From IMG/VR virus record IMGVR_UViG_2563366998_000011, positions 1-53,254 of that record: 53,254 nucleotides of DNA. One strand, 5' to 3'. The DNA comes from a virus. Lineage: Duplodnaviria; Heunggongvirae; Uroviricota; Caudoviricetes. A program made the translations under genes and the position numbers. The notes beneath the pieces are model-generated. The model was not told where the DNA came from, did no database searches, and was given only the letters and a program-made list of their open reading frames with translations. This document shows, in pieces, positions 1,085 to 41,400 of the stretch; within the stretch, counting starts at the first letter, position 1; each line of letters starts with the position of its first letter.

Positions 1085-1516
1085 TTATTGCCCCCAGCGT
1101 TTTATAAATTCCTCGTTTAATTTCGTATCACCTGACCATTGAACATTATGTTCAGCACCGAACGAGTAGATCAGTTCGATTAATTCGCTAAATTCCGCTT
1201 TACTCATCCGGCTGGTTGATGTTCCCAGCACAACAAAGCCTGATTTGTCCAGGTTAGGGACAACGCCATATTTCTTAAGCCCGGCAGTGAATACCGCCTT
1301 CCAGTCTTCCGGCGACAGCCTCTTACCGTACCAATTAACCTGATCACTAATGTCGGTTAGCAACGCCCATAGAAGGCTATTTTGGCTTAGCGAGCGGGTT
1401 TTCTCCTGGATGGTGATTATCAGCGGGCTTTTGCTATCAGGCTGTATTTCCCTTATCTGCCTGATAGCATTTTCTTTCACGGCGTCGTTGACTATCTCAA
1501 ATCTAATTTGCCTCAT
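1085..1516 (-). CDS. ninB: Recombination protein NinB (Orf family)
   Basis: 143 aa; close match along full length to lambda NinB as recalled (VVTIQE..RSL.QN..LWA....S.QV.W.G..L....WK.VFTA.LK...VVPNL...GFVV.G.STSRM...EF.EL.ELI..FG). Confidence 0.85.
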   Translation of the reverse strand: MRQIRFEIVNDAVKENAIRQIREIQPDSKSPLIITIQEKTRSLSQNSLLWALLTDISDQVNWYGKRLSPEDWKAVFTAGLKKYGVVPNLDKSGFVVLGTSTSRMSKAEFSELIELIYSFGAEHNVQWSGDTKLNEEFIKRWGQ

Positions 1517-1710
1517 AATACACCGTTGCTATTTTTCCATTGCGCCCGCGCATACATGATCGCCCATAAAGAAATGAGCCTTGAACTAGCCATATGGTCG
1601 TTTTTTAGTTTTTTCATATCAACGACGACAGGACGATCAGGATCATCGTCGCGCATGTATTCCGCAATCGTGCTCAGGTCTTCAACTGTTAAATCTAATT
1701 CCTTATCCAT
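1513..1710 (-). CDS. Hypothetical protein
   Basis: 65 aa ORF; start overlaps ninB stop (translational coupling). Confidence 0.45.
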   Translation of the reverse strand: MDKELDLTVEDLSTIAEYMRDDDPDRPVVVDMKKLKNDHMASSRLISLWAIMYARAQWKNSNGVL

Positions 1711-1719
1711 AACGCCACC

Positions 1720-1926
1720 TCACACAATACGCATTGTGTTTCGTAATTCACCGCGCAGCGCGCGCAGTGCATCACGCATTGGTACAAAAAACCGGTTAAA
1801 TTTTACGTGTTTATATTTCCGCATTAGTGGCGGTGTATAAACCATCGCGCCGCAAGAATTGCATGGGAAACGGAAATGTGATTCATCAATGAATGTTTCA
1901 ACTGAATAAAAGATTACACGTCTCAT
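1720..1926 (-). CDS. Hypothetical small Cys-containing protein
   Basis: 68 aa ORF (CNSCG motif), coupled to flanking genes. Confidence 0.4.
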   Translation of the reverse strand: MRRVIFYSVETFIDESHFRFPCNSCGAMVYTPPLMRKYKHVKFNRFFVPMRDALRALRGELRNTMRIV

Positions 1927-2480
1927 AATTCCAATCCAGTTTCACCATTAAGTTTTTCGATCTCAAATACTGGTTTATCCGGCAGCAGGCCGTTATTTTT
2001 CCGGTATTCATTCAGGCGGCTGTCAAAATCAAATGCAAGATCATTAGCGTGACCGAAGCGCCCAGGTTTAAACAGTGAATAAAAATTAAGGCCATGTTTA
2101 TTTGTATCAATGCAAAGTGTCTCATCAAGCACCATTAAACGCAGGGTGCGCGAAAGATAATTCCACGGGATACCTGTTTCAGCGCTAATGTCACGCATAC
2201 GCTTTTTGACGCTGTAGTCACTAAATAACGCCGCCACACGATCGCGACGTTGTGCATACAAATATTTAATCCGATAACCAAGCAAGCGGCGGCGTGGTCC
2301 GAAATATGTATATACACGCTCGACAATGCCAGTGTCGATTAAGTGTTTAATTGTCTCAGGCAAGCATCCTGCTTCGTCATATTCCGCTGATAATCCTGTT
2401 TTCTGGCGTAACTGCTGCATTGTGTCGATGCCATCCAGTTCAAGGATGTTGATAATTTTTGTTTCAAGTTCAATGCTCAT
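1923..2480 (-). CDS. Hypothetical protein (possible N-terminal HTH)
   Basis: ORF 1923..2516; likely start MSIELET at 2480 with GAGG RBS. Confidence 0.5.
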   Translation of the reverse strand: MSIELETKIINILELDGIDTMQQLRQKTGLSAEYDEAGCLPETIKHLIDTGIVERVYTYFGPRRRLLGYRIKYLYAQRRDRVAALFSDYSVKKRMRDISAETGIPWNYLSRTLRLMVLDETLCIDTNKHGLNFYSLFKPGRFGHANDLAFDFDSRLNEYRKNNGLLPDKPVFEIEKLNGETGLEL

Positions 2481-2559
2481 TGTTTTTAGCCTCAATTTAA
2501 GCGCGAAAACAGCCACCAGAAAGCGGTAAACTTTCCGGTAAGCCGTTTGCTCAAGTTAA

Positions 2560-3981
2560 TTAAAAAGATGCTTTATTCTGGTTGTTTCGTGGCGAGAATC
2601 GGCTTACCGCCGGACGTTGTTGCATTGACTGGATGCAAGCTGACGCCGCGCGGGCCTGGTCACACGGTAATATGTTGCCGTTGTCGTCAAAACGCTGGTA
2701 AACAGTCCCGGTTTTTCCGTGACGGTTTTTTGAAACGATAATCTCCATGTATTCGCGTGCAACAGATTGTTCGTTGTAGTAGCCGTCGCGGTATACCATG
2801 ATGATCCGGTCTGCGTCCTGTTCAAGATTGCCGGAATCGCGCAGATCAGAATTGTTCGGTCGCTTGTTCGGTCGTTCCTCGACGCGGCGGGATAATTGCG
2901 CCAGCGCCGCCACTGGTACGCGCAATTCTTTCGCCATCATTTTCAATGACCACGACAATTGCCCTACAGCGAGATCGTGACGTTCTGCCTTAGCCAGCTT
3001 CATTAACCCGATGTAGTCAATCATTACCATACCCAGGTTGGGATAATCCTGCTTCATTCGTTCAGTTGTGGCGCGTATTTCCTCGACAGTTAACTGTGAT
3101 GCATCAACAATCCACACATCGAGATCAGCAAGTGCGCTCATTCCCTGGGCAACGTGCGCCCATCCTTCGTCATCCAGTTTTACCGGATTACGTAAGCAAT
3201 CCGTTGACAAATTCCCTGCGCCAGCGATAGCGCGTTCAGTCATCTGATCGAGCGACATTTCAAGCGTGAACAGCAAAACGCCGACCCGCTGACCTTCGCC
3301 TCCAGGGTATGGGCGTTCAGCCGCCGCGCGGGCAATTGCCAACGCCAACGCCGATTTACCAGACCCTGGGCGTCCGGCGATAAGCACCAGATCAGTAGCG
3401 TTAATGCCGCCTAACATTTCGTCGAGTGGGTCAATCCCTGTTTTGATGTTGTCAGAGTTCACGCCACACTCCATGCGTTTACTTAACACTTCCGTGTATT
3501 CCTGGACCGCATCGCGCAACAGCACCGGGATAATTTGATCTTTTGTTACCTTTAATTTTGAATACCGGGAATCAAAATCTTTCATCGTCTCCCTGACGAC
3601 TTCAAGCGTCCCTGTTTCCAGCTTGTAGCGAATGTCTTCCATTAGTTCCAGCATTTGCCGACGCTGGTGTTCTTCCTGTAGTAGTTGCGCATATCCTTTC
3701 AGGTTGGCAGCAGAAGGGCACGATCGTGCCGTTTGCATTAGCGGTACAAAGTTTTCATTGCCAATCTCATCGCCAACCAATAACGCGTCGATAAGATTTC
3801 TGTTTCTGGCTTGCGCCCGGATAACTTCAAACGCACGTTTATAAAGCGGGATCGTGAACACTTCAGGATCAAGTGTGGCGAGAACATCTTGCGCGTTAGG
3901 AGTAAGGCCACCTAACAGTAGCCCGCCGATAACTGACGCTTCACGTTCCTGCCGTAGTGAGTTTATTTGCTCAGTTACCAT
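2560..3981 (-). CDS. dnaB: Replicative DNA helicase, DnaB family
   Basis: 473 aa; Walker A GRPGSGKSALALAIA; C-terminal DnaB signature LRDSGNLEQDADRIIMVYRD...SKNRHGKTG; DnaB-like N-terminal domain; GGAGG RBS. Confidence 0.85.
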   Translation of the reverse strand: MVTEQINSLRQEREASVIGGLLLGGLTPNAQDVLATLDPEVFTIPLYKRAFEVIRAQARNRNLIDALLVGDEIGNENFVPLMQTARSCPSAANLKGYAQLLQEEHQRRQMLELMEDIRYKLETGTLEVVRETMKDFDSRYSKLKVTKDQIIPVLLRDAVQEYTEVLSKRMECGVNSDNIKTGIDPLDEMLGGINATDLVLIAGRPGSGKSALALAIARAAAERPYPGGEGQRVGVLLFTLEMSLDQMTERAIAGAGNLSTDCLRNPVKLDDEGWAHVAQGMSALADLDVWIVDASQLTVEEIRATTERMKQDYPNLGMVMIDYIGLMKLAKAERHDLAVGQLSWSLKMMAKELRVPVAALAQLSRRVEERPNKRPNNSDLRDSGNLEQDADRIIMVYRDGYYNEQSVAREYMEIIVSKNRHGKTGTVYQRFDDNGNILPCDQARAASACIQSMQQRPAVSRFSPRNNQNKASF

Positions 3982-3999
3982 TATGTTATTGCCTCCGGT

Positions 4000-5118
4000 T
4001 TACAAAATGGAATATTCAGGGTAATAAACAAAGCGCCCAATTTCCCCATGATCCGGGCTGTAAATAATCACCGCTGCCAGACGCCGCGACCGCCAGCCGC
4101 CATTAGTTGAATATGCGTCTTTGCCAGCTAATGTGCCGTGGTGCTCAACTATTCCAAGTGATGTTTCAACAACTGATTGATGGTGCAGATGTCCAGTGTG
4201 AGCGTAAACAGCCACAGACCTTCCGAAATCCTCCCGCCAGTCAGCTACGCAAGCAGACAATAAATTTTCCGGCTTTTTGATAGTGTGCCCGTGGTGGTAA
4301 GCAAGGAATGTTTTGCCATACTGTGTGTGGTGGACAATGGCAGGTGACACGTCAACAGTCACGCGCGGCTCATCTTCGTAAAAAGCCGCAAGCGCAGCAC
4401 GTAGCCAGATCATACCTGATTGGTCGTGATTACCGGATAATACCTGGATCTCGACATCCTTATGATTTAGTAACATCTTCCCGACCGCACGCCGGACCGA
4501 CCGGATCGCCACATAAACCAGTTTTGCGTAGCGTGAATCACAATCTAAAACGTGATTACTTGATGGCGTCACTGGTAACAGGCCGTCAGTGTGAAGCACA
4601 TCACCGCCGAGAAGTAAAACAGCTTTTTCAGACATCGGAGCAGCGCCAACAGCGTAGTCAAAGAAGTCATTCAACACGCGCTCAGCGATCCCAGTATCGT
4701 AGCTCTCACCGCATTCAGCTTTATGAGCAAGCGCCCCGATATGCAGATCAAACACCGGATAAAGTGCCAGGCTTTTTTGAAAATCAATTTCAGGCACTGG
4801 CACAGCCTCCGCGCGTGGTATTTCATCAGTGAAAGCGTCGCGGGCCGCTTCCATTAGCTGTTCCATTTCTTCGCGGTCACGGGCTGTTTTAATCCAGCGC
4901 ATGATAACATTGCCGTTCTTATCGACTAGCAACGACTCGCCATTGACGCCAAAACCAGGAGCGCGGCGTGTTGATAATAAACCACGTTTCGCCAGTTTTG
5001 CGCCCAGGCGCTCGACATTGCGTTTTGACATGCCATATTTTTCAGCAATCTGCTTGTACGTTAAACCGTTGTTATATTCAGCGATCAATTGCTCATCGCT
5101 GATTTTTCTTTGCGACAT
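4000..5118 (-). CDS. HTH-domain protein with metallophosphoesterase motifs (possibly replication-associated)
   Basis: 372 aa; N-terminal HTH (LTYKQIAEKYGMSKRNVERL); motifs DLHIG, GGDVLHTDG, SGNHDQ resembling SbcD/Mre11-type metallophosphoesterases; lies between replisome organizer and helicase. Confidence 0.6.
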   Translation of the reverse strand: MSQRKISDEQLIAEYNNGLTYKQIAEKYGMSKRNVERLGAKLAKRGLLSTRRAPGFGVNGESLLVDKNGNVIMRWIKTARDREEMEQLMEAARDAFTDEIPRAEAVPVPEIDFQKSLALYPVFDLHIGALAHKAECGESYDTGIAERVLNDFFDYAVGAAPMSEKAVLLLGGDVLHTDGLLPVTPSSNHVLDCDSRYAKLVYVAIRSVRRAVGKMLLNHKDVEIQVLSGNHDQSGMIWLRAALAAFYEDEPRVTVDVSPAIVHHTQYGKTFLAYHHGHTIKKPENLLSACVADWREDFGRSVAVYAHTGHLHHQSVVETSLGIVEHHGTLAGKDAYSTNGGWRSRRLAAVIIYSPDHGEIGRFVYYPEYSIL

Positions 5119-5152
5119 AATGTTAATTCCTCAGGTTTACATTTTGTATACA

Positions 5153-6208
5153 TCAGGATATAGCACAACGAAAAAACTTGCACCCCAAATAATCCTCAAT
5201 GCGTTTTTGTCTTATCGCATCGCTTTTTGCTTGCCGTTTGTGATGTGATTCATCAATTTCTACAGCAATATTATTCACAAGATCGTAGCCATCAATAAAA
5301 TACTTGTTGCCAGCAACATTAACAGGATATTGCCTTATTAATTTAACTCCTTTTAGTTTTTCGTACATAGTTAATCCAGCATGTTCATAACGCTTCCTAA
5401 TCATATTTTTACAATTATAACTCATTTCTGATAATTTCTCGTCACATTCCCTTTTTATTTCCTCAATTACATTCTTGTCGCTTTTTAATTCAATAAAGTT
5501 TTCTATGTCGTTATAATTACCGCATTCAAAATTATTACTAAGACCTTTATTTTGACCCCATGTATGATACTTTTCCGCTATCTTATCGCTAATATATCTT
5601 TCATATCCATAATTTGTTTTAACTGTAAAATATTCAATATTTAAATCAATGGTAAACTCATCATTATTAAGATGTTCATTTAAAAACGTATCTGGATCTG
5701 CAATATCGCTTGAATGAAACAACCTTACCCATAGTTTTTCTATTGATACTCCGCGAGTAACGAACAACCATTTTTTATACTTTTCAGCATCTTCCTTTGA
5801 CACATACACAGAGCATCGCCCGGGAGTATCACTAGTTTCAACATAGTTGTTACACCATAAAACATAATTATAAGCATAAGGACTATCTTTTCTGGTATTA
5901 TTTGAATATTTATTAAACACATCTTGTAAATCAACTAATCCACAAGATTCAATAACTGGCTTAACCCAATTTTCATTATATTCATAATGTCTATATTTAC
6001 CAGGTGTAACGAATCTAATAAACGTTATAGGTGTGATATACACATCATCACCATCAATAATAAAATCCTTGTATTCCTCAAATCCGTAAAGATCAGAGTA
6101 TTTAACAAATGATTTAAGCCTATCGATTTCAAGTTCAGAAACAAGATTATTAACAGATAGTAATTGCGTGTCCTTACAATTTAGTTTCACATGATAAGTG
6201 GCAATCAT
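5153..6208 (-). CDS. AT-rich moron protein with C-terminal restriction-endonuclease-like (DUF559/Vsr-like) domain
   Basis: ORF 5153..6289; likely start MIATYHV at 6208 with AAGAGG RBS; visibly AT-rich versus flanks; C-terminus YFIDGYDLVNNIAVEIDESHHK...DAIRQKRIEDYLGCKFFR fits the DUF559 endonuclease pattern. Confidence 0.55.
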   Translation of the reverse strand: MIATYHVKLNCKDTQLLSVNNLVSELEIDRLKSFVKYSDLYGFEEYKDFIIDGDDVYITPITFIRFVTPGKYRHYEYNENWVKPVIESCGLVDLQDVFNKYSNNTRKDSPYAYNYVLWCNNYVETSDTPGRCSVYVSKEDAEKYKKWLFVTRGVSIEKLWVRLFHSSDIADPDTFLNEHLNNDEFTIDLNIEYFTVKTNYGYERYISDKIAEKYHTWGQNKGLSNNFECGNYNDIENFIELKSDKNVIEEIKRECDEKLSEMSYNCKNMIRKRYEHAGLTMYEKLKGVKLIRQYPVNVAGNKYFIDGYDLVNNIAVEIDESHHKRQAKSDAIRQKRIEDYLGCKFFRCAIS

Positions 6209-6361
6209 ATGTACCTCTTTTCTTAATTTTATATATAACGCCTCAGACGTGCTACAACGCAAAAATCCCACCGCGTAACCCGTTTGCACAGGTTGCAGTG
6301 TCTTATTGCGTCAGAGGCGCTCTCAGGTGGCTAATTTTTGATTTACAGGCTGGTATGAAGG

Positions 6362-6463
6362 TTATGGATTGATAAGAAGGAACAAACCGCCGAACAAAGC
6401 GACGTTAACAGCGATTGCAGCAGCGATGGCAAAGGCCAGGGCGAAAACGTGTTTACCGTCCAT
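6362..6463 (-). CDS. Small hydrophobic membrane peptide (33 aa)
   Basis: MDGKHVFALAFAIAAAIAVNVALFGGLFLLINP; GAGAGGA RBS 7 nt upstream; below track cutoff. Confidence 0.35.
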   Translation of the reverse strand: MDGKHVFALAFAIAAAIAVNVALFGGLFLLINP

Positions 6464-6596: not shown

Positions 6597-7649
6597 TCAA
6601 AGAGCGCCTGCGCGTGTGTCGCGTAGCGTTTTTGGTTTAAGCAGGAAATCAAGTGTCGCTGTGAAGCCATTGCCGAAGTAAAAATCTGAAGCCGTGTTTT
6701 TGAATGTTTCGAAGTAGGCGACAAAGCCGTTAATGCTTTTGTCTTTCAGGTAGTCAGTGAACGCATAGATCTTGCGTTCAAGATCCCGATCCAGTTCGAC
6801 AGGTGGTAACAGGCCGTCAAACGTGCTGTTAAATGCTTCCACCACGTCGGCAGCGTTTGCAGTGGCTGACAGTTTGCGCCATTGTTCAGCATCAGTCAGA
6901 TACCCATCAAATTTAGTTACCCGGCAAATATTGATAGGCTTAGGTGTTCCACCACGGCTACGCCATTGCGTTAAAGCCCACTCAATCACTAATGTGATCT
7001 CATCCTCCGTATACGCTTTACGTGTTTTTGTTTCTGTCAGTAGTTCGATGAATGGCTTCGCATCACGACATTTGCATCCTGCCTTGTCGTTGTAGAAGGC
7101 CAGGCAACGCAACGCCGCTTCGTTTACGCCATCATGATTGACCATTTTTTGTTCATTTTCGACAATACACGAAGTGTATATATCTTTTTCTCTTTCTTCT
7201 TCTACTTCTAATTCTAATTCATGACCCTTTCCTGACCCGGTCATGACCCTATCATGACCTTTTTGTGTTGGATTGATTAACTTTTCTAATTTTAATTGCT
7301 CCTTAGCTGTGTTTATGGCGGCCCTGTACGCGCTTTTAGAAGTCATTGATTGGTCAAGCCTTTTCAATAACTTTAAACAAGTTATGTGGCCTTGAGAACA
7401 TTCAAACAAACCAATTTCGATGAAGTATTTCATCATTTCTTCTATACGTTTTTCAGTCGATCCGACGTTTCGCGCAATGATTCTCGCGTCATGTCGTAGG
7501 TCAAAAGTCAGATTGTGCTGATCTACGTCATAAGTTATTAGTTCGAGGCAATACCAATAAAGCCCGTACCCTTCCAGGCCATAATCTAACAAAACGTTTT
7601 GAAGTTTTTCATCGCGGTTCGCATCGCTGTCATGCTTAAACCACTTCAT
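6597..7649 (-). CDS. Phage replication initiation / replisome organizer protein (DUF4373-like N-terminus)
   Basis: 350 aa; N-terminus MKWFKHDSDANRDEKL...YGLEGYGLYWYCLELI matches the Lin1244/DUF4373 pattern of phage replisome organizers. Confidence 0.65.
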   Translation of the reverse strand: MKWFKHDSDANRDEKLQNVLLDYGLEGYGLYWYCLELITYDVDQHNLTFDLRHDARIIARNVGSTEKRIEEMMKYFIEIGLFECSQGHITCLKLLKRLDQSMTSKSAYRAAINTAKEQLKLEKLINPTQKGHDRVMTGSGKGHELELEVEEEREKDIYTSCIVENEQKMVNHDGVNEAALRCLAFYNDKAGCKCRDAKPFIELLTETKTRKAYTEDEITLVIEWALTQWRSRGGTPKPINICRVTKFDGYLTDAEQWRKLSATANAADVVEAFNSTFDGLLPPVELDRDLERKIYAFTDYLKDKSINGFVAYFETFKNTASDFYFGNGFTATLDFLLKPKTLRDTRAGAL

Positions 7650-7652
7650 AGA

Positions 7653-7910
7653 TCATCCCTCCGGCAACATCACTACATAGACATCACTGAATGCATCAAG
7701 ACGACAAACAAATCCTTTATCCATTAACGCGGCGAAGGCATCATGTACCGTATGAACAGGAAGTTCACACATTGCGGCTACTTCTTTGCGTGATGCATCA
7801 TGTACCCGTCCTTTGTTATCTGCCTTTTCAGCCAGAGCCATTAAGACAAGTTTTTGAATCGGGCTATTAAGTTTTACGTTCCATGCTTTACTAATCATGT
7901 TTATACTCAT
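7653..7910 (-). CDS. HTH DNA-binding protein at the Cro position
   Basis: ORF 7653..7988; best start MSINMISK at 7910 with AGGAGAAAA RBS; KLVLMALAEKADNKG resembles HTH_36 winged helix; first gene divergent from the repressor. Confidence 0.5.
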   Translation of the reverse strand: MSINMISKAWNVKLNSPIQKLVLMALAEKADNKGRVHDASRKEVAAMCELPVHTVHDAFAALMDKGFVCRLDAFSDVYVVMLPEG

Positions 7911-8180
7911 CGCATTTTCTCCTATGGTTAGAGTGAACGCGCGGGCGGGCATCCCATTAGCATTAGATAGCAGTGACTGACCGCTCAACAGATCCCGCCG
8001 TTGCGTGATATTTGTTTTTCGCTTCGCAGCGACACCGGATTTTTAAAGAGCATAAGGTAAGTGCCTTTTTGTGCCTTCCGTTATCTTTTTCCTTGCGTCT
8101 TTGCAAGTATGGCCTTACCTTGTCTGCAAGTTTACAAAATGGAATTTTAAGATCAAGGCTTAAAATACACGTTTTGTGAC

Positions 8181-8216
8181 TTGCATCAAACTTTTTGAGG
8201 TTATAGGGTAGCGACA
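8181..8216 (+). promoter_or_regulatory. Candidate pRM-like promoter giving a leaderless cI mRNA
   Basis: TTGCAT (8181-8186), 17-bp spacer, TAGGGT (8204-8209); predicted start coincides with the cI ATG at 8216; no SD upstream. Confidence 0.35.
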
Positions 8217-8863
8217 TGAAAACAAAATGGTATGACTTAGCAAAGCAGCTCATGCGGGCGCAGGGCATGAGCCAGGATTCGCTCGCGGATCGTATGGGGA
8301 TAACTAAAGGCGGCCTGTCACACTGGCTGAACGGTCGCCGAGAGCCAAATCTTGAAGATATTGCGCGGATTATGCGCGAGCTTGGTCGTCGGCAGTTTAC
8401 TGTTACACATGATGGCATGGTCATTGATGATTCTGTTTCTAATACACTTCAGGCCGTGCCGCCGCGTGATTTAGGTAGTTACCCGGTTATTGACTGGAAG
8501 GACACAGTAAACAATATGGATGACGCAAGGCGTTCAGCATTACGACACGTTACGACTAGCGTTATTTGTTCAGATGACAGTTACTGGCTGGTTGCCAAAG
8601 GTGAATCAATGAACGCGCCGCAGGGGTTGAGCATCCCGGCGGGGACGATGATACTTGTGGACCCGCACGCGCCAGCTATTGACGGCAAACTGGTTATAGC
8701 CCAGCTTGAGGAAGGGCAGATACCGACGTTTAAACAGTTGATTATTGATGGAGGTCAAAGGCTTTTACGTTCGCTCAATCCGCTGTATCCGCCAATCCCT
8801 ATGAATCCAGAATCAAAAATTATAGGCGTGGTGGTTGATGCGAAGATCGTAAACCTGCCATAA
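8216..8863 (+). CDS. cI: CI-like repressor (HTH-XRE plus S24 LexA-like peptidase domain)
   Basis: 215 aa; N-terminal HTH (MSQDSLADRMGITKGGLSHWLNGRREP); C-terminal S24 domain with GESM serine and downstream lysine (TFKQL); divergent from the Cro-position gene. Confidence 0.85.
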   Translation: MKTKWYDLAKQLMRAQGMSQDSLADRMGITKGGLSHWLNGRREPNLEDIARIMRELGRRQFTVTHDGMVIDDSVSNTLQAVPPRDLGSYPVIDWKDTVNNMDDARRSALRHVTTSVICSDDSYWLVAKGESMNAPQGLSIPAGTMILVDPHAPAIDGKLVIAQLEEGQIPTFKQLIIDGGQRLLRSLNPLYPPIPMNPESKIIGVVVDAKIVNLP

Positions 8864-8867
8864 ACAT

Positions 8868-8893
8868 TAGCCGCCGAATGGCGGCTTTTCTTT
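8868..8893 (+). terminator. Intrinsic terminator downstream of cI
   Basis: hairpin GCCGCC-GAAT-GGCGGC followed by TTTTCTTT. Confidence 0.6.
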
Positions 8894-8987
8894 GCCTGGG
8901 AAACACCAAAACGTAAACAGAAAACGTTATTTATTATTTAAATATCAATGGCATATAAAATATTTTAAAAAAGTATACAAAATGGAT

Positions 8988-9016
8988 TGACTCGATGTTT
9001 TACGGGGCGTATATTG
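8988..9016 (+). promoter_or_regulatory. Candidate pL-like sigma70 promoter
   Basis: TTGACT, 17-bp spacer, TATATT; immediately preceded by the dispersed TACAAAATGGA motif (8976-8986). Confidence 0.4.
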
Positions 9017-13364: not shown

Positions 13365-13462
13365 TTATGGACGATACATTGTTTTATATGTGCTGTTTCT
13401 GGGGTTTTATTGCCTTATACCTGTTTATCAGGTGGTTTATTGAATACCATATGAGGTAATGT

Positions 13463-13657
13463 ATGGAACAAGAAACTGATTATCGAATACCTGATAGCCT
13501 AAAATTAGTTGGCATTGGTTTCGGGTGTAGATTTGTATCTGACGCAAAAGGAGCGATTTATTTAATACGTCTTATTGATGGCGTTCAACATATAAGGAGA
13601 TTAGGAATTTACATCAAAGCATTCAGAAGAGGTTATTTAAAAACTCATGAAATTTAA
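13463..13657 (+). CDS. Hypothetical protein
   Basis: 64 aa ORF. Confidence 0.35.
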   Translation: MEQETDYRIPDSLKLVGIGFGCRFVSDAKGAIYLIRLIDGVQHIRRLGIYIKAFRRGYLKTHEI

Positions 13658-13850
13658 ACATTACATGGAATGGAAAATTCCAGAAGCAGCAACAAAGGCA
13701 GCGCCAGGAAATTTTTCTGGCGTTTATTTTTATATGGATGGCAAATGGTATTTCGGCAGCAGGCCGGATCACTACTATCAAGAAATATGCAAGCCTCACG
13801 TATGGGATATTAAAGAGCGCGTGAAAGGCGGGGTAATTGAGGACGTTTAA
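13647..13850 (+). CDS. Hypothetical protein
   Basis: 67 aa ORF. Confidence 0.4.
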   Translation: MKFKHYMEWKIPEAATKAAPGNFSGVYFYMDGKWYFGSRPDHYYQEICKPHVWDIKERVKGGVIEDV

Positions 13851-40690: not shown

Positions 40691-41400
40691 ACTAAACCCC
40701 GGTGCAATGCCGGGGTTATTTTTGTGCACAGAAAACCCCCAGCTAGGCTGGGGGTTCCGGAAAGCTTTCAGCTTTAAGCCAGTTATTAAAACCCCTTTTG
40801 ATTTGTTAAAACACCTTGCGGTCTGGCAACTGCAAGTGTCAAACAAGAAATCAAAAGGGGGTCCCAATGGGGAACGAAAAGAGCTTAGCGCACACCCGAT
40901 GGAACTGTAAATATCACATAGTTTTTGCGCCAAAATACCGAAGACAGGTGTTCTACAGAGAGAAGCGTAGAGCAATAGGCAGTATTTTGAGAAAGCTGTG
41001 TGAGTGGAAAAGTGTACGGATTCTGGAAGCTGAATGCTGTGCAGATCATATCCATATGCTTGTGGAGATCCCGCCCAAAATGAGCGTATCCGGGTTTATG
41101 GGATATCTGAAAGGGAAAAGCAGTCTGATGCTTTACGAGCAGTTTGGTGATTTGAAATTCAAATACAGGAACAGGGAGTTCTGGTGCAGAGGGTACTACG
41201 TCGATACAGTGGGTAAGAACACGGCGAAGATACAGGATTACATAAAGCACCAGCTTGAAGAGGATAAAATGGGAGAGCAGTTATCGATTCCCTATCCGGG
41301 CAGCCCGTTTACGGGCCGTAAGTAACGAAGTTGGATGCAAATGTCAGATCGTGTGCGCCTGTTAGGGCGCGGCTGGTAAGAGAGCCTTATAGGCGCATTT
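40691..41400 (+). mobile_element. IS200 insertion sequence (boundaries approximate)
   Basis: contains IS200-type tnpA; left-end hairpins at 40697-40715 and 40733-40756; about 0.7 kb; inserted between tape measure and gene M. Confidence 0.65.
40867..41325 (+). CDS. tnpA: IS200/IS605-family transposase TnpA
   Basis: ORF 40816..41325, likely start MGNEKSLAHTRWNCKYHIVF; HxH motif (HIHMLVEIPP) and catalytic Tyr region (GYYVDTVG); matches Salmonella IS200 TnpA as recalled. Confidence 0.9.
   Translation: MGNEKSLAHTRWNCKYHIVFAPKYRRQVFYREKRRAIGSILRKLCEWKSVRILEAECCADHIHMLVEIPPKMSVSGFMGYLKGKSSLMLYEQFGDLKFKYRNREFWCRGYYVDTVGKNTAKIQDYIKHQLEEDKMGEQLSIPYPGSPFTGRK

Follow-up and report, generated by a model that had tools for sequence, protein, structure and literature searches.

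A Vsr-like/DUF559 nuclease gene with an orphan N-terminal region, a candidate free-standing homing-type endonuclease gene, in a polymorphic slot of an mEp-immI-type coliphage

Vsr-like homing endonucleases constitute an established family, which comprises I-Bth0305I, the free-standing phage enzyme Hef, and the endonucleases of "fractured genes", and in the layout of the I-Bth0305I type an N-terminal DNA-binding region precedes a C-terminal Vsr-like domain of ~100 amino acids (aa) (PMC3239194, PMC2677866). Another kind of phage homing-endonuclease gene, in which a CapR/DUF723-type zinc-finger array is joined to T5orf172, has been described by Barth, Dunham and Seed (2023; PMC10448857), who report that such genes gather in the vicinity of essential genes and where genetic exchange has its boundaries. 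The stretch of DNA that we analyzed here—the 53,254 nucleotides of the IMG/VR virus record IMGVR_UViG_2563366998_000011, hereafter the window—appears to be the complete genome of a temperate Escherichia coli phage from the mEp-immI/mEp021 group, and carries between its replication genes a 351-aa gene, hereafter the cargo gene, which combines a Vsr-like/DUF559 nuclease module at the C-terminus with an N-terminal region lacking recognizable relatives. Judging from sequence comparison we lean, tentatively, toward the cargo gene being a free-standing homing-type, that is, selfish endonuclease gene, whose N-terminal region would supply target recognition. Catalytic domains of this type, elements of this class, and slots that behave in this way are already known; what is new is the orphan N-terminal region, along with the recognition that a DUF559 subfamily usually labeled as Rha regulators behaves like homing endonuclease genes.

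When set beside the EDxHD enzymes (I-Bth0305I, PDB 3R3P; Hef), the product of the cargo gene likewise ends in a Vsr-like catalytic domain that follows an N-terminal region of greater length, and the corresponding places of the active site are taken by acidic and His residues; and the gene itself, as in that family, is phage-borne, free-standing, and adjoining genes of DNA metabolism (PMC3239194, PMC2677866). In contrast to that family, the N-terminal region contains neither NUMOD nor helix–turn–helix (HTH) motifs, and the gene is located in neither an intron nor an intein. The family profile of the module, for its part, did not match 3R3P at E ≤ 10, so that kinship with EDxHD was not found at the level of sequence.

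The first-pass annotation of the window, which had been made from the sequence alone, saw in the C-terminus a fit to the DUF559/Vsr-like restriction-endonuclease fold, and profile, structure prediction, and fold search all agree with that assignment; the lack of a nuclease fold, which the annotation would have counted against itself, thus does not apply. The Pfam model DUF559 (PF04480) matched aa 283–339 with an E-value of 1.3e-4 and 22.2 bits in a search with the whole protein—the gathering cut-off being 20.6 bits—and the isolated fragment comprising aa 240–351 scored 25.1 bits. An AlphaFold2 model of that fragment, obtained with an alignment of 126 family sequences, reached a pLDDT of 91 and predicted a long helix that is followed by three strands, a second helix, and a last strand, which succession corresponds to the alpha-beta-beta-beta-alpha-beta core of the restriction-endonuclease-like fold; the top matches of a Foldseek search with the model were all PD-(D/E)xK nucleases. 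The residues E275, E283, D306, E317, D319, E320, H323, and R333, invariant in the 126 sequences, are all retained in the window protein, in which the nearly invariant D330 is also present. The resulting pattern is of the catalytic type—an Asp on strand 1, an E-x-D on strand 2/3, a His, and a downstream Asp—and was mapped to Vsr D51/H64/H69/D97 by motif alignment and the literature (PMC3239194), not by superposed coordinates. As predicted from these data, then, the C-terminus is an intact Vsr-like PD-(D/E)xK nuclease module, which part of the protein is basic (pI 9.5). With DUF559 proteins such as NGO0050 (PDB 3HRL) the module shares, in addition to the Pfam match, the motif D...ExD..H...D..R, but it ends directly after the last strand and is thus shorter than the 109 positions of the Pfam model; and unlike DUF559 at large, the phage subfamily to which it belongs has the signature ...YPV..Y.IDGYD..NN.AYEIDE..H...D..R..I...LGCKF.RI.V and is fused to phage DNA-binding domains.

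The 351-codon frame is a real gene and not a chance open reading frame (ORF): at the composition of the cargo gene a stop-free run of that length has a probability of ~4e-15, the remaining five frames contain 18–65 stops, and the ratio of nonsynonymous to synonymous divergence (dN/dS) is 0.10 (dS 1.27) versus a 78%-identical homologue and 0.13 versus a 94%-identical one, the N- and C-terminal parts being alike. The open frame spans 5153..6289 (−), or 378 aa, if counted from a GTG; an AAGAGG ribosome-binding site (RBS), however, lies ahead of the ATG at 6208, and the database homologues of the 351-aa protein begin at that same Met. The full-length homologues, P0001 (94% identity) and P0002 (78–79%), come from E. 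coli prophages, in which they occupy that same slot. The cargo gene was said by the first-pass annotation to be more AT-rich than its neighbors and to have been acquired separately, which view our GC-content scan upholds: its GC content is 30.8% (23% at third codon positions), compared with 49.2% and 43.2% for the flanking genes and 45.7% for the whole window, and no 1,056-bp stretch within the window has a lower value, that of the cargo gene being 4.7 standard deviations under the mean. Elsewhere in the first 14 kb, the second-lowest dip in GC content (36.7–38.5%) is at 13400–13800, in an early-left run of 64–91-aa ORFs.

By sequence, the nearest characterized nuclease cores are those of PvuRts1I and AbaSI. 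The sole match among 5,027 PADLOC models, with an E-value of 2.3e-7, was to the PvuRts1I-like mREase_II; PvuRts1I can be aligned over the EIDExHH...D..R motif, and AbaSI is 25–28% identical in fold alignments; all of which might suggest a modification-dependent Type IV enzyme directed at T-even phages, whose DNA, with its hydroxymethyl- or glucosyl-hydroxymethyl-cytosine, it would cut. We nevertheless regard this possibility as very improbable. The PADLOC match is confined to the nuclease core (profile positions 37–101 of 294), and the nuclease is C-terminal, which placement reverses the domain order of PvuRts1I and AbaSI; no match to an SRA-like reader was found, the remaining 265 aa being unmatched anywhere; the sequence matches in the PDB were not significant (E ~0.9); the genomic setting differs; and pEJ01, a T4-like phage that is lytic, has the same module in a slot of homing endonucleases. 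Furthermore, with no promoter found and with a hairpin upstream, as will be detailed below, the lysogen would probably lack such an enzyme.

The relatives of the module point elsewhere. A profile search with the module alignment retrieved 321 protein clusters, whereas the 90-aa module by itself, as the query of a word-index search, had returned one candidate, the search having worked with an alignment query only. Among the 126 family members that were aligned, the N-termini were Rha in 98, Bro-N in 3, and AntA in 2, and 83 of those members also matched Pfam DUF559; the module relatives are 83–203 aa long, with the window clade alone exceeding the latter length. Comparison of the module with the Rha/Bro-N family by hhalign gave a probability of 99.9 and an E-value of 6e-37 over aa 250–351, at 43–57% identity, whereas the window N-terminus failed to align with the N-termini of that family. 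The mini-proteins of 145–203 aa in which Rha, Bro-N, or AntA is joined to DUF559 (mEp044_12; pEJ01 UYE95259; Vibrio phage NVP1206O_46) thus share the module with the cargo gene, and mEp044_12, a Bro-N plus module protein, even occupies the same slot; their N-termini, in contrast, measure 50–120 aa, as opposed to the 265 aa without homologue in the window protein. Most module relatives are annotated as "Rha family transcriptional regulator", and the C-terminal DUF559 module, its catalytic-type motif invariant, is carried by several hundred phage and prophage proteins of ~145–165 aa bearing that name (P0008–P0127 among them), which annotation, on sequence grounds, probably hides a family of small nucleases. 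In the literature that we searched, no paper linked Rha with DUF559. If our reading is correct, these widespread ~160-aa "regulators" would be an unrecognized family of Vsr-type mobile endonucleases, and the PD-(D/E)xK/Vsr-type class would join the HNH, GIY-YIG, and T5orf172 genes that are normally counted in coliphages.

The occurrence of the module in pEJ01, a Krischvirus, is informative as to its company. There the Rha-module gene lies downstream of gene 32, between that gene and frd, in what is a classical slot of homing endonucleases in RB49-like phages, and is present at this gap in pEJ01 only, among 64 related records; the gap is empty in JSE, is occupied by a GIY-YIG gene in another phage, and in RB49 holds a 485-aa "endonuclease" of CapR (x4)/DUF723/DUF4379 zinc fingers, in which T5orf172 was not detected. 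The gene 32/frd gap of the RB49-like phages corresponds to the position in T4 of segG, a free-standing endonuclease gene of a type to which the cargo gene may be compared. Since two unrelated polymorphic slots, that of the mEp-type phages and that of the Krischviruses, alternate between the same two cargo classes, the module would belong with the free-standing mobile endonuclease genes; and this two-slot parallel is the strongest argument, though a circumstantial one, for considering it as part of such a gene.

We surveyed the contents of the mEp-type slot in 35 complete E. coli genomes with the same backbone. The most frequent occupant, in 12 of them, was a 303–307-aa protein with three CapR/DUF4379 treble-clef zinc fingers and T5orf172; Bro-N plus KilAC, Ant, or BRO proteins were found in 8, Rha-type proteins in 3, the 351/353-aa gene in 2, and something else in another 3, while the slot was empty in 7. 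The zinc-finger plus T5orf172 genes resemble the cargo gene in occupying the same slot and in joining a modular targeting region to a small nuclease near essential genes, but differ from it in the catalytic fold—GIY-YIG-like versus PD-(D/E)xK—and in that the DNA-binding modules are unrelated. In mEp044 the slot comprises two genes, one coding for Bro-N and the same nuclease module (55% identical) and the other for Rha plus KilAC. The cargos are thus sporadic at a fixed intergenic position, with empty alleles among the collinear relatives and with identical junctions for different cargos; and the slot, which between the O-like initiator gene and the exonuclease/DnaB genes receives at least five cargo types at those junctions, is among the most exchange-prone points of the mEp-immI backbone. 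For the phage the cargo gene matters little, being dispensable and absent from most relatives.

Comparison of mEp044 (L001, 1853–3207) with mEp554 (L002, 1853–2596), in which phage the slot holds one Bro-N plus KilAC gene, indicates domain shuffling in situ: identity is 64% between the Bro-N parts and 94% between the KilAC parts, as though the central portion had been swapped for another. In mEp010 (L003, 160–750) a gene of the HNH_3 plus AP2 homing-endonuclease type is inserted between the exonuclease-like gene and dnaB, which genes are separated in the window by 18 bp (3982–3999); at a distance of one gene there is thus another polymorphic slot for nucleases. Two further loci (L009, 9075–9215; L011, about 1119–1294) possess an extra AT-rich, non-coding piece of 140–177 bp between the cargo and the exonuclease-like gene, which piece tracks a different allele of the latter and is independent of the cargo type.

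The same slot contents bear on whether the cargo product might be a DNA-binding regulator that nicks or does not cut at all, or a replication or recombination accessory, from the Rha/Bro-N/KilAC "antirepressor" network and active in early development, in which the nuclease fold would be used for binding phage or host DNA. Eleven of the 35 slots contain Bro-N/Rha/KilAC/Ant-type proteins, the module relatives have the annotation "Rha family transcriptional regulator", all the full-length homologues are located between the replication initiator and the exonuclease–DnaB genes, and CapR, a relative of the T5orf172 homing endonucleases, is a documented repressor (PMC10448857). On the other side, the catalytic-type residues are invariant over the 126 members, which conservation would be unexpected in a domain that only binds; the emptiness of 7 of the 35 slots and of that of mEp010 argues that nothing in that position is needed for replication; and the N-terminus matches no Rha, Bro-N, KilAC, or HTH model. 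A role of this kind is therefore quite unlikely. A confinement of the homologues to replication contexts, which the first-pass annotation would have taken to suggest an accessory function in replication, was indeed found to the letter, in that all the full-length ones share the slot; such a function, though, is not indicated by that shared context, since in 33 of the 35 prophages the slot has either another content or none.

The boundaries of the insert could be placed by alignment of both flanks, which flanks are 84–93% identical to mEp554, mEp013, mEp515, mEp044, and mEp010. At the downstream end the sequence 5110–5152 is common to all the relatives, the shared sequence restarting at 5152, directly past the stop codon, and containing the RBS and the start of the next gene; at the upstream end the positions 6237–6249 (CGTCTGAGGCGTT) are common to LP26, an allele with a different cargo, of the T5orf172 type. 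In the empty slot of mEp010 the backbone anchors are 33 bp apart. A left junction at ~6246 was considered and discarded, since 6237–6249 are also found in the prophage with the T5orf172 cargo, so that the cargo begins at 6236. Likewise, a flanking direct repeat or target-site duplication (TTTTTGCGTTGTAGC / TTTTTTCGTTGTGCT) was judged to be a chance similarity, which resemblance was weaker in the 78% allele. What is inserted is, in short, the ORF plus a leader of 28 nt.

A scan of the coding strand with consensus sequences disclosed no sigma-70-like promoter upstream of the cargo gene, though a weak promoter could escape such a scan; nor was a terminator found after the gene, the RBS of the next gene following within 35 nt. 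The designation "moron" that had been given to the gene consequently lacks support in the strict sense, since no promoter or terminator of its own was found by these scans. Upstream of the slot, by contrast, a stem-loop with a U tract looks like a terminator-like element within the early-right operon, which element is part of the context and not of the cassette: its z-score versus shuffled sequences was −2.9, its sequence is conserved in the relatives, and an outer, imperfect pairing of 6308–6320 with 6237–6249 encloses it in a structure extending over 6237–6320 (−); a simple terminator scan made no call at the stem-loop of 6269–6300. mEp-immI-type phages have been described as Nus-dependent (PMC11893012); the cargo gene is not discussed in the mEp-immI genome paper.

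Given the lack of a detected promoter and the hairpin upstream, the cargo gene would be read out with the early-right operon, probably only under antitermination. In the mechanism that we propose, transcription after induction or infection would proceed past the terminator-like hairpin by virtue of antitermination, the gene being silent in the lysogen if, by analogy with lambda-type phages, the operon is repressed there. The N-terminal ~265 aa would recognize the target, and the long helix ahead of the nuclease core may mediate dimerization. If the same cell also contained a related phage or prophage that lacks the cassette, the enzyme would cut its DNA near the slot, upon which recombinational repair from the cassette-bearing genome would copy the gene together with adjacent markers—intron-less homing, with marker exclusion—while the carrier would be protected through sequence differences at the target.

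Of the two roles that the first-pass annotation had put forward, an abortive-infection or exclusion factor on the one hand and, on the other, a homing endonuclease of the free-standing kind, the comparative evidence appears to favor the latter, because the cassette is limited to the ORF and 28 nt, no promoter was found, a hairpin lies upstream, and the slot-mates and module relatives are present in homing slots. The main rival, and the more interesting outcome, is an exclusion or anti-competitor nuclease, borne by the phage for defense, whose orphan N-terminus would sense an invader—a protein, a DNA feature, a satellite, or a competing prophage—and license the Vsr-like domain to cut, and which may perhaps be a domesticated homing-type nuclease. 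A large, acidic, conserved region without nuclease features beside a small effector nuclease would suit that function; that purifying selection has persisted through a divergence this deep (dS 1.27, dN/dS 0.10) suggests that the carrier benefits; accessory cargo in variable phage slots is often rare, as is this gene; and the single PADLOC match was to the nuclease core of a restriction enzyme. Homing-endonuclease domains, moreover, are documented as having been repurposed in phage-satellite conflicts, as in Odn of ICP1 and CapR of PLE (PMC10448857). We still consider such a nuclease somewhat unlikely, for no PADLOC model was matched in full length, expression in the lysogen, where prophage defense genes act, is improbable with no promoter detected and a hairpin upstream, and both the slot-mates and the relatives of the module speak for selfish nuclease genes. 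That the N-terminus would be a new targeting or sensor domain, in a homing-type nuclease domesticated as a weapon against a competing prophage, a satellite, or a superinfecting phage, in the manner of ICP1 Odn, we rate as unlikely.

The N-terminal region was held to be unrecognized from the outset, and remained so in every library that we searched. Pfam gave no match to it, even with E ≤ 10 allowed, nor did PHROGs, NCBIfam, PADLOC, or the PDB sequences, and an HMMER search of 1.84e9 representative proteins with aa 1–275 returned its own cluster only, plus one artefact: P0006 (E 6e-4), a 1,045-aa tandem-repeat protein of which a 30-residue, Tyr/Thr-rich stretch was matched six times, was thus rejected as a homologue. 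No similarity was found to the endonuclease in the slot of RB49. No internal repeats were found in the region, the look-alikes YVSKEDAEKYKKW and YISDKIAEKYHTW having received no support from hhalign comparison of the segments; and AlphaFold2, when run on the full length with a 3-sequence alignment, gave a pLDDT of 34 and no usable N-terminal fold. The region is acidic, with a pI of 4.9 and a net charge of −14, and rich in aromatic residues, and is constrained as strongly as the nuclease part (dN/dS 0.10). Its pI is at the low end of those of the partner domains of the module (median 7.9), but an acidic N-terminus does not disqualify the protein for homing because in 27 of 121 partner domains the pI is likewise below 6. 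If this region were a new domain for the recognition of long DNA targets, it could be of interest to engineers of site-specific nucleases.

Against a homing-type endonuclease gene several observations have to be weighed, and the support for that interpretation is circumstantial throughout. The link to the EDxHD enzymes is at fold level only, with 10% identity in the structural alignment. In the N-terminus no NUMOD, HTH, Rha, Bro-N, or KilAC model was matched in Pfam, a DNA-binding motif being unrecognizable, and its acidity is at least as much in keeping with a sensor or a domain that binds protein. With 2 of 5,426 complete E. coli genomes carrying it, and with a low share of the slot, the gene is rare; degenerate copies were not seen. 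The divergence of its two alleles is ancient (dS 1.27), took place while purifying selection was strong, and is shared by the upstream flank at the least, which combination looks like long vertical residence rather than a recent invasive spread. Finally, the identity to the nearest prophage, 94.7% at first, drops to 89.9% at a point within 20 bp of the 3' end of the gene, but this break cannot serve as proof of a "boundary of exchange", a 250-bp sliding profile having revealed many such patches.

Table 1. Coordinates in the window of the cargo gene, its parts, and its immediate surroundings.
Feature	Position	Strand	Remarks
Cargo gene	5153..6208	(−)	351 aa; ATG start at 6208; TGA stop at 5153–5155
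Cassette	5153..6236	(−)	1,084 bp: 28-nt leader, 351-codon ORF, stop codon; flanks align up to both ends
Cargo-specific leader	6209..6236	(−)	Contains AAGAGG ribosome-binding site, 6214–6219
N-terminal region, aa 1–266	5411..6208	(−)	Orphan, acidic, 15% aromatic residues
Nuclease module, aa 267–351	5156..5410	(−)	Predicted Vsr-like/DUF559 PD-(D/E)xK; profile, fold, and residue evidence
Backbone stem-loop + GGAUUUUUGCG	6258..6300	(−)	Terminator-like: 13-bp stem-loop 6269–6300, then U tract 6258–6268
33-aa hydrophobic peptide gene	6362..6463	(−)	Own ribosome-binding site; backbone, outside the cassette
Lin1244_N/O-like replication initiator gene	6597..7649	(−)	Upstream neighbor
HTH + "DNA repair exonuclease" (phrog_704) gene	4000..5118	(−)	Downstream neighbor, then DnaB

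The surroundings of the cargo gene are those of an early replication operon, as the first-pass annotation had described them, with the initiator and the HTH/phosphoesterase gene as neighbors (Table 1). The product of the latter gene is a metallophosphoesterase by RefSeq annotation, and is encoded directly before DnaB, where a lambda-like module would have the helicase loader. The gene of a 33-aa membrane peptide that had been noted upstream is present, but it has no part in the acquisition: a conserved backbone gene, it was found in 7 of the 7 related loci examined, mEp010 with its empty slot included, with mostly synonymous changes, which distribution over every related backbone sets it apart from the insert.

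The mosaicism of the backbone is patchy everywhere. In the comparison with the 94% allele, the dS of the cargo gene was 0.21 versus 0.71 for the exonuclease gene, the downstream flank thus being discordant. The window can be aligned collinearly with the E. coli M15 prophage (L024), to which the stretches 3251–3750 (part of dnaB) and 7501–9000 (the cro/cI immunity region) are 100% identical, whereas the neighboring stretches are 83–94% identical; which alternation amounts to a very fine mosaic with recent exchanges. An E. coli draft assembly contains a 99.98%-identical copy of positions 1153–5340 of the window, with the contig break inside the AT-rich gene, and the 61-aa "partial" copy P0007, which might have been taken for a decaying pseudogene, is explained by that contig end.

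The cargo gene does not address any long-standing open question. In the late/tail region of the phage, far from the slot, positions 40734–40857 (+) gave a full-length Rfam match to STnc490, an Hfq-binding small RNA, with 146 bits versus a gathering threshold of 56 and an E-value of 6e-30.

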